64,000 nt of DNA from Bacilli bacterium. Its GTDB lineage: Bacteria; Bacillota_I; Bacilli_A; RFN20; CAG-826. A model generated the notes under the pieces. The model was not told the DNA's origin. It did no database searches and saw nothing but the letters and a program-made list of their open reading frames with translations. The translations under genes were made by a program, and so were the position numbers. The stretch's first letter is position 1. Each line of letters begins with the position of its first letter. The stretch lies in assembly GCA_035361955.1 (NCBI GenBank), contig DAOSDC010000004.1:14916-78915 (forward strand). Reading direction: 5' to 3'. This document shows, in pieces, positions 43,911-47,178 of the stretch.

Positions 43911-45995
43911 TTAACGGCACACCACCCTTTTAGTCACGTAGTCATAACGGCTTTGTGCCGTCAATATTTCAATTCGCATCGTATAATCGGTATCTGGTAG
44001 CAATGCTTTGTTATACCGGTAAGTCGCTAATGGTTCGCCATCGTAGGCGAGGATGTCACCGAAATATACTTTCATGTTGACGATTTCATCATCCAATGGT
44101 GCCGACATGGCAATATTGATGTCGGATGATGAAGTAAGCTCTTGTCTAGTTGTGATATTCGTCAAATTGACCGCGGCCTGTTTTCTGGCGATTAACTCGT
44201 CGGCGATGACCACTCCATTATCGGCCATGCTTGGAACCGAATTGGCGGGCAGTTGCCGTACCACCAGCGATTGCTTGGTCGGAACTCTTAAATGCACGGA
44301 GCCTGATACATTACGGGCGAGGATCGTCTGTGATAAAGCGTCGAATAGGTCATATGCATATTCGGGACCTTCATAGTTAACGATATATGCCTGGTTATAC
44401 GGGTTATAAAACAAATAACCCGGCATTTGGGATGGCCCGAAACTATCGGTGGCGTTCAAATCAATGCGCAAAATTCCATTCACATTCGTTTTTTGGGCCA
44501 CAGCCCCGAGGCCCCCGATAAAAGCCGAGCTATACAAACTGAGATCTGAAGGTTGTCCAAACATCGTCGTGGCATCGCCCATGGCATAACCAGTCATTGA
44601 ATTCCAGCTTTGACGGAATCCTTCATAAATAAGCGTGCCTTTTGTATCAAATGGTAAATAACTGTTCATCGATTGGTGTGACAAACTATGCGTTTGCGGG
44701 AAAAAGTAGCGGGCATTGCTGACGAGATTGAGCATGTATTTGCCAATCGCGTTTGCGTAACGGGGGTCGTATTTGACCATGGGTGCTAACGTGGTGGCTA
44801 AATGAAGCGAATTCATCGCAAATGCATAATCGCCGGCTTGCCCGACGAGCCCATGGACCGGATAATCGCCAAACGAGCCGCTCATGACAGCCCAACCCGG
44901 CCGGAACGAGGAATCGCCATCAAATAGAAAATCAATGAATTTACCGATATCGTAGGAGGTGCCATGATGCGCGTTTAATATCGCGGCGATGTATGGTGCG
45001 TAATCGGTTAGAGCTTCATAATTCGGATTCTTTTGATAGGTTTGTAAATAATCGAGTACTTCCTTCGTACCGTCAAGATATTTTTCATCACCCGTTATTT
45101 TATAAGCCGAGTAGAATAACGCCGCGAGTCCACCATTGGGAGGCTCGATGTGACCTCCGGTAACCGTCGGAGATTCAAGCACGACGTTATATCCGACGAA
45201 TTCGTAGTTCGGCACCCCGCTTTTAACGAAATAAGGTAGCGCTTCGAGCCATTCATTCGCCCCGTTAAGCACGATTTCTTGCATGAAGGGGGTGTCAGGA
45301 TAAAGCTCATACAAGCGCGCGAATATTATTTGAGGAAACAGATCGTACCAGAAGCTTTGTCCTTGAACGCCATAGTTATGAACTAATTTCGACCCGGTGT
45401 CATAGCTTGAAAAAGTCATTTCCACGAAATCATAAGTAGTATCACCAAATTGTTGGTTTTGTTTGTCGATGCCGGCATAACTAGCGCCGAGCACTGAAGA
45501 AATCGTGGTCATTGCTTCGCTACCGGAACTGACGACGCGATTATCACCCACGTATGTCGGAAGCCCAAACGTGCGTTTTAGATAACCGGTTTCCAGTGGG
45601 TTATAAACTGGAGGCTGCCGTGGCTGGTCGAGCCAATATCCAATTGGGTTCCATGATGAAGGATCGCTTGAGATGTATGAAGGGATTCTGACAGTCGGAT
45701 CATTGGCAAAACCGAAAATGACCCGGTCGAGCTCTCGAGCCGCTGCTCCATAATCGTAATAGCGGTAATTAGTTGGAATATCTGGGAAAGAATTGATTTT
45801 TGAAATCGTTTTTTCAACACCGATATCGGACGCTAAAAAGGTGGGTTGCTCACTCGATTCACCGCTTGATTCGTTTGAAGTAATTGGCGTTGTAGACGAA
45901 GAAAAATCGCTAACTGAAAGCGATGAAGTTGCCGATTCACACGCTGATAGTAGCAACACCAGAATACCGAGCCCAGTTTTAAGATGTCGTTTTAT
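43911..45995 (-). CDS. Surface lipoprotein of unrecognised family (paralog 2 of 23494..26382). Putative novel glycan-active enzyme. It probably initiates at a non-ATG codon (ATA 45995 or ATT 45998).
   Basis: The track ORF begins with GTG-encoded 'M'LLLSAC at 45959, which is too short for a signal peptide. The in-frame upstream sequence after the TGA at 46008-46010 encodes G-G-E-I-I-KRHLKTGLGILVLLLSAC, a canonical lipoprotein signal, and is preceded by the SD GAGGTGG. The central region is homologous to the 23494 protein. Confidence 0.6.
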   Translation of the reverse strand: MKRHLKTGLGILVLLLSACESATSSLSVSDFSSSTTPITSNESSGESSEQPTFLASDIGVEKTISKINSFPDIPTNYRYYDYGAAARELDRVIFGFANDPTVRIPSYISSDPSSWNPIGYWLDQPRQPPVYNPLETGYLKRTFGLPTYVGDNRVVSSGSEAMTTISSVLGASYAGIDKQNQQFGDTTYDFVEMTFSSYDTGSKLVHNYGVQGQSFWYDLFPQIIFARLYELYPDTPFMQEIVLNGANEWLEALPYFVKSGVPNYEFVGYNVVLESPTVTGGHIEPPNGGLAALFYSAYKITGDEKYLDGTKEVLDYLQTYQKNPNYEALTDYAPYIAAILNAHHGTSYDIGKFIDFLFDGDSSFRPGWAVMSGSFGDYPVHGLVGQAGDYAFAMNSLHLATTLAPMVKYDPRYANAIGKYMLNLVSNARYFFPQTHSLSHQSMNSYLPFDTKGTLIYEGFRQSWNSMTGYAMGDATTMFGQPSDLSLYSSAFIGGLGAVAQKTNVNGILRIDLNATDSFGPSQMPGYLFYNPYNQAYIVNYEGPEYAYDLFDALSQTILARNVSGSVHLRVPTKQSLVVRQLPANSVPSMADNGVVIADELIARKQAAVNLTNITTRQELTSSSDINIAMSAPLDDEIVNMKVYFGDILAYDGEPLATYRYNKALLPDTDYTMRIEILTAQSRYDYVTKRVVCR

Positions 45996-46025
45996 AATTT
46001 CGCCACCTCACAAAGATTCTCATTT

Positions 46026-46060
46026 AGTATAGCATAATGAAAATAAGTGGTATAAAAATT
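46026..46060 (-). promoter_or_regulatory. Candidate sigma-A promoter of the 14-gene minus-strand operon (minus-strand reading: TTATAC, 18-nt spacer, TGcTATACT)
   Basis: The extended -10 TGnTATACT lies about 30 nt upstream of the GAGGTGG RBS of the first operon gene. The region is AT-rich. The -35 is weak. Confidence 0.35.
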
Positions 46061-46170
46061 TAATATTATATTAATAAAAAATTAACCAATTAATATTTGA
46101 TAATTTTTATAATAATTTAAATAAAATGCGGTATAAACGCATATTAGGAATCATTCGTGGTGCGAGTTAA

Positions 46171-47178
46171 TTAATCAATTACCTCAGAAACCGGATTTAA
46201 ATCTTTTACTGATTCCCGTTCGACTAAATGCGATCGCAGTTGCACAAGGGCGTGTTTGCCTTTAATAGCATCGACCATCGCTCCAAACGCTTTGCGGGCG
46301 ACGCTGTCTTTATTAGGACCAACTGAGGTTAATTTTGGCATCAAGTTTTCGCAAAGCATCGTATTGTCAAAGCTGATAACTGAAACATCGTCGGGTACTT
46401 TCAGTCCATTGACGGATAGTAGCGAATATAACTTTTGCGCCGCCGAATCGCAGTGGCAAATGTAGGCTGTCGGCAGATTGTTCAGTGGAAGGTCGAATAA
46501 CGATACTTGGCGCTCAATGTTTTCGTTGATGTGCCAAGCGGGGTCAATTCGTAAGCCCTTTTCATTCATAGCTTTGACATAGCCCATATAGCGATCCGAT
46601 ATTGAGGTCGTCTTATTGATGTTGCCGATAAAACCAATTTTTGTATGACCTTTGTCAATCAGATAGTGAGCCAGCATATAAGAGACCTGATAATTGTCGA
46701 CGTAAAGGAAATTACACGAAAATAGCGGTGAGTAAATATCGATAAAAACGCTGGGAACGGGATGTTTCTCCATAAATTGGAGAATTTTTTGGCTAACTTC
46801 ACAGGCAAAAAACACACCATCGGGATTAAAATTGGCAATCGTCGTTTTGATTTTTTCAACCGGCTGTTCTGGTTCAAGGAATGATATTTGTAACATGCTA
46901 TTTACTTTTGCGAGTTCGGAAGTCAAATAATAGAAAATCGTCGAGTAGTATTGTTCCGATGGAGTTAGGAAAAAATCTTGATTGATGAAAAAGAGAAACC
47001 GTTTCTTATTAATGCCCTGATGCGATGATTTGCCAACATAGCCAACTGATTTGGCGTAAGCCTTGATTTTGCGTCGCAAGGGATCGCTGACGCCCGATTG
47101 GTTGTTGAGCGCTTTAAAAACGGCGACGGTGCTGACGTTCATTTTATCAGCGATAGTCTTTAATGTAATTTTTGCCAT
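46171..47178 (-). CDS. LacI-family transcriptional regulator
   Basis: N-terminal HTH MAKITLKTIADKMNVSTVAVFKALNN. Periplasmic-binding-like C-terminal domain. Confidence 0.8.
   Translation of the reverse strand: MAKITLKTIADKMNVSTVAVFKALNNQSGVSDPLRRKIKAYAKSVGYVGKSSHQGINKKRFLFFINQDFFLTPSEQYYSTIFYYLTSELAKVNSMLQISFLEPEQPVEKIKTTIANFNPDGVFFACEVSQKILQFMEKHPVPSVFIDIYSPLFSCNFLYVDNYQVSYMLAHYLIDKGHTKIGFIGNINKTTSISDRYMGYVKAMNEKGLRIDPAWHINENIERQVSLFDLPLNNLPTAYICHCDSAAQKLYSLLSVNGLKVPDDVSVISFDNTMLCENLMPKLTSVGPNKDSVARKAFGAMVDAIKGKHALVQLRSHLVERESVKDLNPVSEVID

Follow-up and report, generated by a model that had tools for sequence, protein, structure and literature searches.

A lipoprotein gene heading a glycan-utilisation operon in an uncultured Bacilli bacterium is probably translated from a conserved AUA or AUU codon

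Results

A candidate non-canonical start behind an extended Shine-Dalgarno sequence

A lipoprotein gene that opens a 22-kb mannan/N-glycan-utilisation operon is probably translated from an AUA or AUU codon (hereafter AUH, or ATH in DNA). Comparison with its orthologues leads us to put the probability of this reading at roughly 85%, with AUA at 45995-45993 as the likeliest start and AUU at 45998-45996 as an alternative or additional one. The source is a metagenome-assembled genome of an uncultured, wall-less-type Bacilli bacterium of an Izemoplasmatales/Acholeplasmatales-like lineage, and positions refer to the whole 64-kb stretch of DNA that was analysed (the window). The features at the head of the gene, in the order of transcription, are as follows.

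46126..46142, minus strand: terminator-like hairpin downstream of a LacI-family regulator gene (46171-47178), from sequence
46026..46034, minus strand: extended -10 promoter element of the operon, TGcTATACT; TGnTATACT is invariant in 9 of 9 nearest-relative loci
46008..46010, minus strand: in-frame TGA stop that closes the frame upstream and overlaps the Shine-Dalgarno sequence (SD), from sequence and translation
46003..46009, minus strand: extended SD, GAGGTGG; duplex energy -10.7 kcal/mol with the anti-SD assumed for Bacillota
45996..45998, minus strand: ATT, the alternative candidate start, 4 nt after GAGGTGG and 7 nt after GAGG, from sequence
45993..45995, minus strand: ATA, the favoured start, 7 nt after GAGGTGG and 10 nt after GAGG, from the orthologue alignment
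43911..45995, minus strand: re-annotated full coding sequence, 694 codons plus stop, of a putative surface lipoprotein of an uncharacterised family, from translation
45942..45995, minus strand: predicted signal peptide of 18 codons, with (M)KRHLK as n-region, TGLGILVLLL as h-region and L-S-A of the lipobox, from translation
45957..45959, minus strand: GTG, earliest canonical start after the TGA and the one adopted by the public gene call P0001 (682 aa); no SD precedes it
45939..45941, minus strand: TGT, the Cys of the lipobox, predicted to be lipidated and to become residue 1 of the mature protein, from translation and orthologues

From the TGA (46010-46008), the frame reads GGT GGC GAA ATT (45998-45996) ATA (45995-45993) AAA CGA CAT CTT AAA and continues with ACT GGG CTC GGT ATT CTG GTG (45959-45957) TTG CTA CTA TCA GCG TGT (45941-45939), so that it translates to a stop followed by GGEIIKRHLKTGLGILVLLLSAC. 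The initial annotation had held that a textbook lipoprotein signal, here KRHLKTGLGILVLLLSAC, is encoded downstream of this TGA in a segment free of ATG, GTG and TTG as far as GTG 45959. Strand sequence and translation bear out that absence and the coordinates given for it, as well as the placement of GAGGTGG 4 nt ahead of ATT and 7 nt ahead of ATA. The description of the signal is likewise apt, nearly every full-length orthologue having an equivalent signal that begins M-K/R. Started at ATA, the product has the sequence features of an Lgt/Lsp substrate, namely a charged n-region, a hydrophobic h-region and the lipobox LSA-C. The open reading frame listing begins the gene at GTG 45959, which falls inside the h-region, and no canonical in-frame start gives a functional N-terminus; the first canonical codon comes likewise too late in the orthologues L029, L031 and L032. 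An ATH codon lies behind the SD at a distance (~5-10 nt) that is workable for a non-canonical start.

The promoter context places this arrangement close to the beginning of the transcript. The -10 element lies 27-31 nt ahead of the ATH start and 21 nt ahead of the ATG in an ATG-using subclade, and from its position transcription is predicted to start near 46019. The hairpin at 46126..46142 speaks for a separate transcription unit that begins with the lipoprotein gene. RNA folding around the start gave a minimum free energy of -14.9 kcal/mol (z = 0.03), with no sign of a regulatory fold. We also considered, and rejected, an upstream open reading frame from ATG 46023 (+1 frame, 14 codons, overlapping SD and start); this ATG sits 2 nt past the -10 box without an SD and is ATA in L001, the nearest orthologue.

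As to the product, the AlphaFold model (pLDDT 90.6) consists of helical repeats followed by beta-sandwich domains, and a Foldseek search with it returned distant GH127/GH146-like matches. Searches with the protein gave no match above the cut-off in Pfam and no match among PDB sequences.

The motif itself is not rare: GAGGTG followed after 2-8 nt by ATH occurs 6 times in the window against 6.9 expected. However, only this one of the window's 44 long ORFs has a strong SD and ATH ahead of its first canonical start with no canonical codon adjoining, and the other 43 long ORFs in the 64 kb all have a canonical start available, with no second case of an ATH start among them. The motif alone being no rarer than chance, the weight falls on its position at the head of a 695-codon ORF with no canonical start ahead of the signal peptide, its uniqueness among the 44 long ORFs and its conservation among orthologues.

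The SD-ATH arrangement is conserved in six lineages

ATA or ATT stands at the homologous codon in six orthologue lineages, that is, in the window and in five others at 67-86% protein identity, which read as follows.

L001 (86% identical, the nearest orthologue): ATT ATA AAC CGA
L003/L019/L034: ATT ATT AAA CAC
L029/L030: ATT ATT TAT AAT AAG CGT
L031: ATA AAA ATA AAA CGT; no canonical codon in the open frame until 53 codons in
L032: TTT ATA AAA CGC

For three of the ATH lineages, identical copies came from 2-4 assemblies each. These assemblies represent different samples or databases, but some of the records may go back to the same reads. Four of the six have a stop in frame upstream and no canonical start there, whereas L001 and L003 have an in-frame ATG five codons upstream, where a start would be possible. 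The more distant orthologues read ATG AAA, and the start is canonical throughout the other orthologues examined (ATG except for one GTG and one TTG). Several truncated public calls that we inspected as further candidates (P0006, P0062 and P0063, and P0007/P0009 via L016/L017) were set aside after ordinary upstream ATG starts were found for them.

Between the window and L001, the block from GAGGTGG to ATA AA is identical at 20 of 20 nt, whereas the 7 nt just upstream differ at four; over 40 codons of the signal-peptide region, the two differ by 7 synonymous and 13 non-synonymous changes. The comparison of orthologues, which the initial annotation had proposed as a check, recovers the same SD-ATH arrangement in six lineages and decides for rare ATA/ATT initiation against an error. 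In a neighbour-joining tree, the six ATH lineages group with the ATG subclade (bootstrap 89/200) and are themselves monophyletic in 51/200 replicates, so the branching order is poorly resolved.

The strength of the SD varies with the start codon. Duplex energies at the six ATH sites range from -7.9 to -14.9 kcal/mol (mean -11.0), compared to a mean of -6.5 kcal/mol at 24 canonical sites (Mann-Whitney p = 0.002, with kinship ignored and a consensus Bacillota anti-SD assumed), and the SDs of the closest relatives that use ATG are weak (-3.0 to -4.9 kcal/mol).

Choice between ATA and ATT

On cross-orthologue grounds only, the ATA at 45995-45993 is the best candidate. It aligns with ATA in L001, L031 and L032, with ATT in L003 and L029, and with ATG AAA in the other orthologues, and this is the sole position that offers ATH at a GAGG-core spacing of 7-10 nt in all six lineages, for which reason we favour it. 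A start at ATT 45998-45996 would involve the same mechanism one codon earlier, with a product beginning fMet-Ile-Lys-Arg, and we regard it as rather unlikely but still the most serious of the alternatives. The ATT lies 7 nt past the GAGG core, near the median spacing of the window's ATG genes, as against 10 nt for ATA, and ATT occupies this position in four of the six lineages. Nevertheless, the homologous codon is TTT in L032 and, in L031, an ATA just 3 nt from the SD, so this first position cannot serve as the start in every lineage. Moreover, two other lipoprotein-like genes in the window (18899 and 32757) read ATT ATG AAA, which suggests that ATT is a spacer triplet and ATA a former ATG.

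Canonical starts, sequence errors and altered codes

A start at GTG 45959 or TTG 45956, as in the public call, would yield a cytoplasmic protein without a signal peptide. These are the only canonical codons on offer and the gene caller picked the GTG (P0001), but several observations make such a start improbable. The sequence ahead of the two codons, ACTGGGCTCGGTATTCTG, contains no SD, and the GTG product would begin MLLLSAC, a six-residue stub before the Cys that leaves a lipobox without n- and h-regions. The 16 codons upstream of the GTG encode exactly these missing regions and show coding conservation, with synonymous substitutions between the window and L001. In L031, furthermore, the first canonical codon lies past the whole signal and linker.

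It is very improbable that a normal ATG was lost through faulty sequencing or assembly, through a frameshift or through a recently acquired inactivating mutation. Just upstream, the window has TTG TGA where L001 has ATG CGA, a difference that could be read as a nonsense mutation; yet the same ATH codon recurs in six diverged lineages, with identical copies of three of them from several assemblies, the ORF runs intact for 694 codons and its product shares 86% identity with that of L001, and no ATG in any other frame is preceded by an SD, the ATG at 46023 included. The error or frameshift that the initial annotation had offered as its second option is effectively refuted by the six-lineage conservation and the multi-assembly recovery.

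Just as improbable is translation through the upstream frame, with TGA read as Trp (code 4) or the stop read through and initiation at TTG 46013 or at the upstream ATG of orthologues. Relatives are labelled Izemoplasmatales, Acholeplasmatales or Tenericutes, and both L001 and L003 have an in-frame ATG where the window has TTG 46013. Against this, TGA terminates 12 of the 44 long ORFs, all 229 Trp codons are TGG and the long ORFs are intact under table 11; the first two observations indicate that the genome uses code 11. The upstream ATG/TTG, in addition, has no SD and would fall ~5 nt from the predicted 5′ end, ahead of the strong SD, and L029, L031 and L032 have no such in-frame codon. In the leader, no stretch differs more between the window and L001 than the 7 nt that include this upstream codon.

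Two further candidates were rejected. Reassignment of AUA to Met is contradicted by the gene's five internal ATA codons, opposite which 47 orthologues have mostly Ile (in sum 108 Ile, 31 Leu and 30 Met residues), and by the two lineages that use ATT. For a leaderless or 5′-proximal AUG, the window has TTG TGA at the relevant place, and only L001 and L003 have an ATG in frame, 12 nt past the -10 box.

Discussion

The analysis establishes the anatomy of the sequence, its conservation, the correlation with SD strength and the confinement of the arrangement to this gene within the window. Initiation at AUA or AUU is inferred, a reduced output would be expected from measurements in S. aureus and E. 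coli, and any regulatory role is conjectural. In the proposed mechanism, a short leader would be transcribed from the conserved extended -10 promoter, and the 30S subunit would be anchored near the 5′ end of this leader by the extended SD GAGGUGG. The initiator tRNA would then form two of the three base pairs with AUA or AUU, the weak codon lowering initiation and the strong SD partly compensating. The product would begin fMet-Lys-Arg-His-Leu-Lys; following its export, Cys19 would be lipidated and the chain cut by signal peptidase II. Given that this peptidase cuts off the signal peptide, N-terminal proteomics, another check put forward in the initial annotation, can establish that a signal peptide exists but cannot name the start codon.

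We tentatively raise the possibility, which we hold to be less likely than its opposite, that the weak AUA/AUU codon with its extended SD is a selected translational set-point for the head gene of the ~22-kb operon and not a tolerated mutation. If so, synthesis of a surface lipoprotein enzyme would be throttled, perhaps in response to IF3, ppGpp or nutrient state, and a ribosome held at the 5′-proximal SD could also protect the long transcript. One gene family would then have alternated between two equivalent arrangements, a weak codon behind a strong SD and an AUG whose SD is weak and whose leader is 9 nt shorter, and start regulation of the S. aureus type would extend to secreted proteins and to Izemoplasmatales/Acholeplasmatales-like Bacilli. 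The two arrangements offer a natural comparison for the tuning of initiation in Bacillota-type ribosomes.

The case also bears on annotation. All six public gene calls for the orthologue group (682, 700, 681, 695, 641 and 639 aa, from GTG, ATG, TTG, ATG, TTG and ATG, respectively) are wrong or mutually inconsistent. The lipoprotein signal is lost partly or wholly in four of the six, so that the location of an enzyme at the cell surface, encoded in a glycan-degradation locus, would be mispredicted. Non-canonical starts that gene callers miss in metagenomic genomes can be recovered by checking for absent signal peptides and comparing orthologues.

Comparison with known systems

Bacterial lipoprotein signals are processed by the Lgt/Lsp pathway at a lipobox of the form [LVI][ASTVI][GAS]C. 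The signal described here, with a positive n-region (KRHLK), a 10-residue hydrophobic core and L-S-A-C, conforms to this pattern, and only its start codon is unusual. Our literature search for start codons in Izemoplasma and for lipoproteins with ATA or ATT starts found nothing relevant.

Ribosome-binding 5′ stabilisers, or STAB-SDs, occur on Bacillus mRNAs such as cryIIIA and aprE and are not known to be coupled to a start codon. The gene resembles them in having a strong SD ~10-15 nt from the predicted 5′ end of a ~22 kb operon transcript; it differs in that its SD is correctly spaced from the start of the ORF and in that the ATG-using relatives manage with weak SDs.

In E. coli, infC and pcnB have AUU starts subject to IF3-dependent discrimination and autoregulation (cited in PMC13009471 and PMC5499595), and weak starts of the AUA/AUU type yield 0.1-3% of the output of AUG. 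The weak AUU start limits translation and renders it sensitive to IF3 level, nutrient state and ppGpp. The weakness of the start codon is common to both systems. However, the present gene gives no sign of a tie to IF3 or of a feedback loop, AUA is favoured over AUU, and E. coli does not rely on extended SDs.

A stronger SD has been found to compensate for weak start codons by Belinky, Rogozin and Koonin (2017), whose analysis covered switches from AUG to GUG and UUG (PMC5622118). Likewise, weak codons here go with stronger SDs and related ATG sites with weak ones, but the switch is to AUA/AUU and the comparison covers one gene family with kinship ignored.

The closest resemblance is to the conserved AUA/AUU starts with extended SDs of S. 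aureus and B. subtilis, comprising infC (AUA), ccpN (AUA), cvfC1 (AUU) and citZ (AUA) (PMC13009471, Nat Commun 2026). In S. aureus, these non-canonical starts have been demonstrated by experiment, and comparable sites there gave ~10% of the output of AUG (PMC13009471). Like the members of this class, the gene comes from the Bacillota and has an AUA or AUU preceded by a strong SD that reaches toward the start (GGAGGUG-type, with G:U wobble tolerated), and its non-canonical codon is conserved among relatives; cvfC1, too, heads an operon. The differences are that the host here is an uncultured Izemoplasmatales/Acholeplasmatales-like bacterium in which the start is predicted from sequence comparison, that AUA and AUU interchange among the orthologues while a neighbouring subclade has AUG and a weak SD, and that the product, from a glycan-utilisation operon, is an exported lipoprotein and not a regulator, IF3 or a metabolic enzyme. 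A conserved AUA/AUU start is thus of a kind already known, and the present case would carry it beyond the classic infC, pcnB and ccpN to a non-regulatory exported protein.

A lipoprotein signal that follows ATT and ATA codons

The gene at the head of the operon carries a lipoprotein signal whose frame, read on the minus strand of the window after the TGA at 46010-46008, translates to *GGEIIKRHLKTGLGILVLLLSAC, exactly as the initial annotation had read it. A mechanical ORF list places the start of this 682-codon ORF at the GTG at 45959. The start region contains the following features.

Minus strand, codons from the in-frame stop: TGA (46010-46008) GGT GGC GAA ATT (45998-45996) ATA (45995-45993) AAA CGA CAT CTT AAA ACT GGG CTC GGT ATT CTG GTG (45959-45957) TTG CTA CTA TCA GCG TGT (45941-45939)
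46009-46003, minus strand: Shine-Dalgarno (SD) sequence GAGGTGG, 4 nt 5′ of ATT and 7 nt 5′ of ATA
46034-46026, minus strand: extended -10 element TGcTATACT
46142-46126: terminator-like hairpin, 3′ of the upstream LacI-family regulator gene (46171-47178)

Because the terminator-like hairpin lies behind the LacI-family gene, the lipoprotein gene appears to head its own transcription unit. Among all long open frames of the window, it is the only one in which a strong SD and an ATA or ATT (ATH) precede the first canonical start with no canonical codon adjacent. Enrichment of the bare motif GAGGTG-N2-8-ATH was not found in the window, nor was unusual RNA structure found in the leader and early coding region (z = 0.03).

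Six lineages share ATA or ATT at the homologous codon

The publicly called N-termini of the closest homologues are erratic (MLLLSAC..., MRGGEIINRHLK..., LWIPLVLALASC..., MLEVAIIKHLK..., MPRGTAVNK..., MNQPINK...), since their DNA has ATA or ATT at the start site; among the more distant homologues, nearly all open with a lipoprotein signal of the MKK type. The window protein belongs to a 100%-identical cluster found on several contigs; on one of these (locus L005), the DNA upstream of the gene matches that of the window.

Start regions of the orthologous ATH loci (public protein, identity to the window protein)
L001/L002/L033 (P0002, 86%): ATG CGA GGT GGC GAA ATT ATA AAC CGA; in-frame ATG upstream
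L003/L004/L019/L034 (P0004, 67%): ATG CTG GAG GTG GCA ATT ATT AAA CAC; in-frame ATG upstream
L029/L030 (P0003, 71%): TGA GGT GAC ATT ATT TAT AAT AAG CGT; in-frame stop upstream
L031 (P0005, 70%): GCGAGGAAT ATA AAA ATA AAA CGT; first canonical codon 53 codons into the open frame
L032 (P0008, 70%): GGAGGCCG TGA TTT ATA AAA CGC; in-frame stop upstream

Comparison with orthologues, a check that the initial annotation had named, thus revealed ATA or ATT in six lineages at a site where other orthologues have ATG, supporting its proposal of rare ATA/ATT initiation. The public starts of these six all differ, giving proteins of 682 (L005), 700 (L001), 681 (L029), 695 (L003), 641 (L031) and 639 (L032) aa. 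The remaining orthologous loci examined, among them the nearest relatives with an ATG start (L016, L017 and L062), have ATG AAA-type starts, except for one GTG and one TTG. For the ATG orthologues P0006, P0007 and P0009, the public calls are truncated within the signal peptide, and an ordinary upstream ATG is present. For three of the six ATH lineages, identical copies are present in two to four assemblies each; these come from different samples or databases, although some of the records may stem from the same reads. This recurrence excludes sequencing error, the alternative initially offered, as well as assembly error and recent pseudogenisation. Separately, a more distant orthologue (L051, Ga0224525_1000010, ~2400-2500) has a signal-peptide region apparently frameshifted relative to its close relative L050, with its start, ATG AAG ACA AAA..., out of frame with the gene body; either a genuine pseudogene or a faulty assembly could account for this.

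A neighbor-joining tree placed the six ATH lineages together with the ATG subclade (P0006, P0007 and P0009). Bootstrap support was weak for this group of nine (89/200) and for a monophyletic set of ATH lineages (51/200), and reached 200/200 for the ATG subclade. Whether through a single origin, with or without a reversion, or through several, the weak codon has been kept or has arisen again over lineages ~30% apart in protein sequence, with ATA and ATT interchanged.

ATA is the favored start codon

Only the second triplet is ATH throughout the six lineages: it reads ATA in the window, L001, L031 and L032, reads ATT in L003 and L029, and lies 10, 10, 8, 7, 9 and 9 nt from the GAGG core. The alignment therefore favors the ATA at 45995-45993 as the start codon, which would yield MKRHLKTGLGILVLLLSA|C; the signal would then be 18 residues long and combine a charged n-region and a 10-residue core with the lipobox L-S-A-C. 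Initiation may instead occur at the ATT at 45998-45996, or at both codons, as the spacing of ATT is the more typical when judged in the window alone; against this, L032 has TTT as its first triplet, and in L031 that triplet is just 3 nt away from the SD. Elsewhere in the window, two further lipoprotein-like genes (18899 and 32757) have ATT ATG AAA behind their SD, so ATT ATA AAA could simply have arisen from an ancestral ATT ATG AAA by a G-to-A change.

In L001 and L003, an in-frame ATG that lies five codons upstream could be read as the start of an N-terminal extension. However, this ATG lies 12 nt past the -10 box and ~5 nt from the predicted 5′ end, and it lacks an SD of its own, the strong SD being downstream of it. 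The window has TTG TGA at this site, and L029, L031 and L032 have no equivalent codon. Moreover, the window and L001 differ at 4 positions in the 7 nt spanning the upstream ATG codon, the next 20 nt (GAGGTGGCGAAATTATAAA) are identical, and the 40 downstream signal-peptide codons carry 7 synonymous and 13 non-synonymous differences. A coding N-terminal extension does not fit this pattern, which does fit coding sequence preceded by a conserved, non-coding block of SD, spacer and start.

A start-type codon does lie 0-2 nt 5′ of the SD in 4 of the 6 ATH lineages: TTG TGA, a start-stop pair, in the window (46008-46013), an in-frame ATG in L001 and L003 (3001-3003 in each), and ATG AGG TGA in L029 (about 1758-1766). 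This could be chance, or a 5′-proximal AUG that aids ribosome recruitment.

Altered genetic codes were rejected. In orthologues, the residues aligned with the five internal ATA codons of the lipoprotein gene are mostly Ile, so AUA has not been reassigned; TGA is the stop codon of 12 of the 44 long ORFs in the window and 229 TGG codons specify Trp, so the code in use is 11 and not the Mycoplasma code.

The gene heads a putative mannan or N-glycan utilization locus

The same-strand gene run continues from the lipoprotein gene to about 23494 in the window (GC ~45%) and includes, after it:

a Big_2-domain lipoprotein
a GH130 enzyme
a solute-binding protein and two ABC permeases
a DUF1861 protein
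a GH125 alpha-mannosidase
a GH130 protein with F5/8 type C domains

The operon looks like a mannan or N-glycan utilization locus under the control of a LacI-type regulator. On the minus strand, the GTG of the second gene (43910-43908) adjoins the stop codon of the first (43913-43911) with no gap, which suggests translational coupling. Read from this GTG, the second product starts VKTSRSQIMLLAIIGTFLIGC, a lipoprotein signal; in the public call of the identical contig L005, the start is 8 codons later and the signal is truncated. For the GH130/F5-8 gene, also on the minus strand, the ORF list gives GTG 32829, with a 73-nt overlap with the preceding gene; ATG 32754, with the SD GGAGG at 7 nt spacing and the product MKQTMKWFGLLSVFALL..., seems the more plausible start.

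Neither a Pfam domain above cut-off nor a sequence relative in the PDB was found for the first protein (43911-45995, minus strand). Its confident AlphaFold model (pLDDT 90.6) comprises a helical-repeat domain followed by beta-sandwich domains, and Foldseek matched it, only distantly, to GH127/GH146 beta-L-arabinofuranosidases (E about 3e-7, with TM only 0.27-0.34); the protein is probably an uncharacterized glycoside-hydrolase-like enzyme. Its family is large, lacks a Pfam domain and occurs in Izemoplasmatales/Acholeplasmatales-like Bacilli, the source MAGs of homologues being labeled Bacilli, Izemoplasmatales, Acholeplasmatales, Tenericutes and Erysipelotrichia. More remote members are found in Bacteroidota and Planctomycetota, some with PF18962, which we take to be the Por secretion-system C-terminal sorting domain. 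The protein may represent a new glycoside hydrolase family tied to GH130/GH125 mannan loci.

Upstream of the operon (window 46059-46094, minus strand) lie three or four ATTAAT/TTAAT/ATTAAA boxes ~9-11 nt apart; such boxes and an invariant extended -10, TGnTATACT, are kept in all nine related loci (the window, L001, L003, L029, L031, L032, L016, L017 and L062). A LacI/cre-like palindrome of the TGAAAGCnCTTTCA type adjoins the -10 in L016, L017, L062, L029 and L032 and is degenerate in the window (TATACCACTTATTTTCA). Boxes and palindrome are probably regulator binding sites.

Strong SD sequences accompany the weak start codons

From the anatomy, its conservation, its uniqueness in the window and the correlation with SD strength, we infer a pathway in which transcription from the extended -10 promoter would produce a leader of ~23 nt, the 30S subunit would anchor on the extended SD, and fMet-tRNA would decode AUA or AUU. 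Output would be reduced and possibly sensitive to IF3 or nutrients, and the product would be exported, lipidated and cleaved before Cys19. One possible reason for throttling an operon-head lipoprotein is stoichiometry with the downstream transporter and enzymes. The strong SD might also act as a 5′-stabilizer, an idea from the Bacillus STAB-SD literature.

SD energies were calculated by folding the 20 nt 5′ of the start codon with the consensus 3′ end of Bacillota 16S rRNA, assumed for these genomes. The six ATH sites ranged from -7.9 to -14.9 kcal/mol (mean -11.0), compared with a mean of -6.5 kcal/mol for 24 canonical orthologous sites (one-sided Mann-Whitney p = 0.002, ignoring kinship of the sequences). 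In the nearest relatives that use ATG, the SDs are weak (-3.0 to -4.9) and the leader is shorter by 9 nt.

[quoted passage not shown] In E. coli, AUA, AUU, AUC and CUG starts give 0.1-3% of AUG (10.1101/063800), and low nutrient supply and ppGpp preferentially depress non-AUG starts (PMC5499595). Retapamulin profiling in S. aureus identified conserved AUA/AUU starts in infC, cvfC1, ccpN and citZ, all with an extended SD and with ~10% of the output of an AUG reporter, ccpN reaching up to 30% in rich medium (PMC13009471). The ATH sites described here likewise have a strong SD, and their pairing of weak starts with stronger SDs resembles the tendency of stronger SDs to compensate for weak start codons (PMC5622118).
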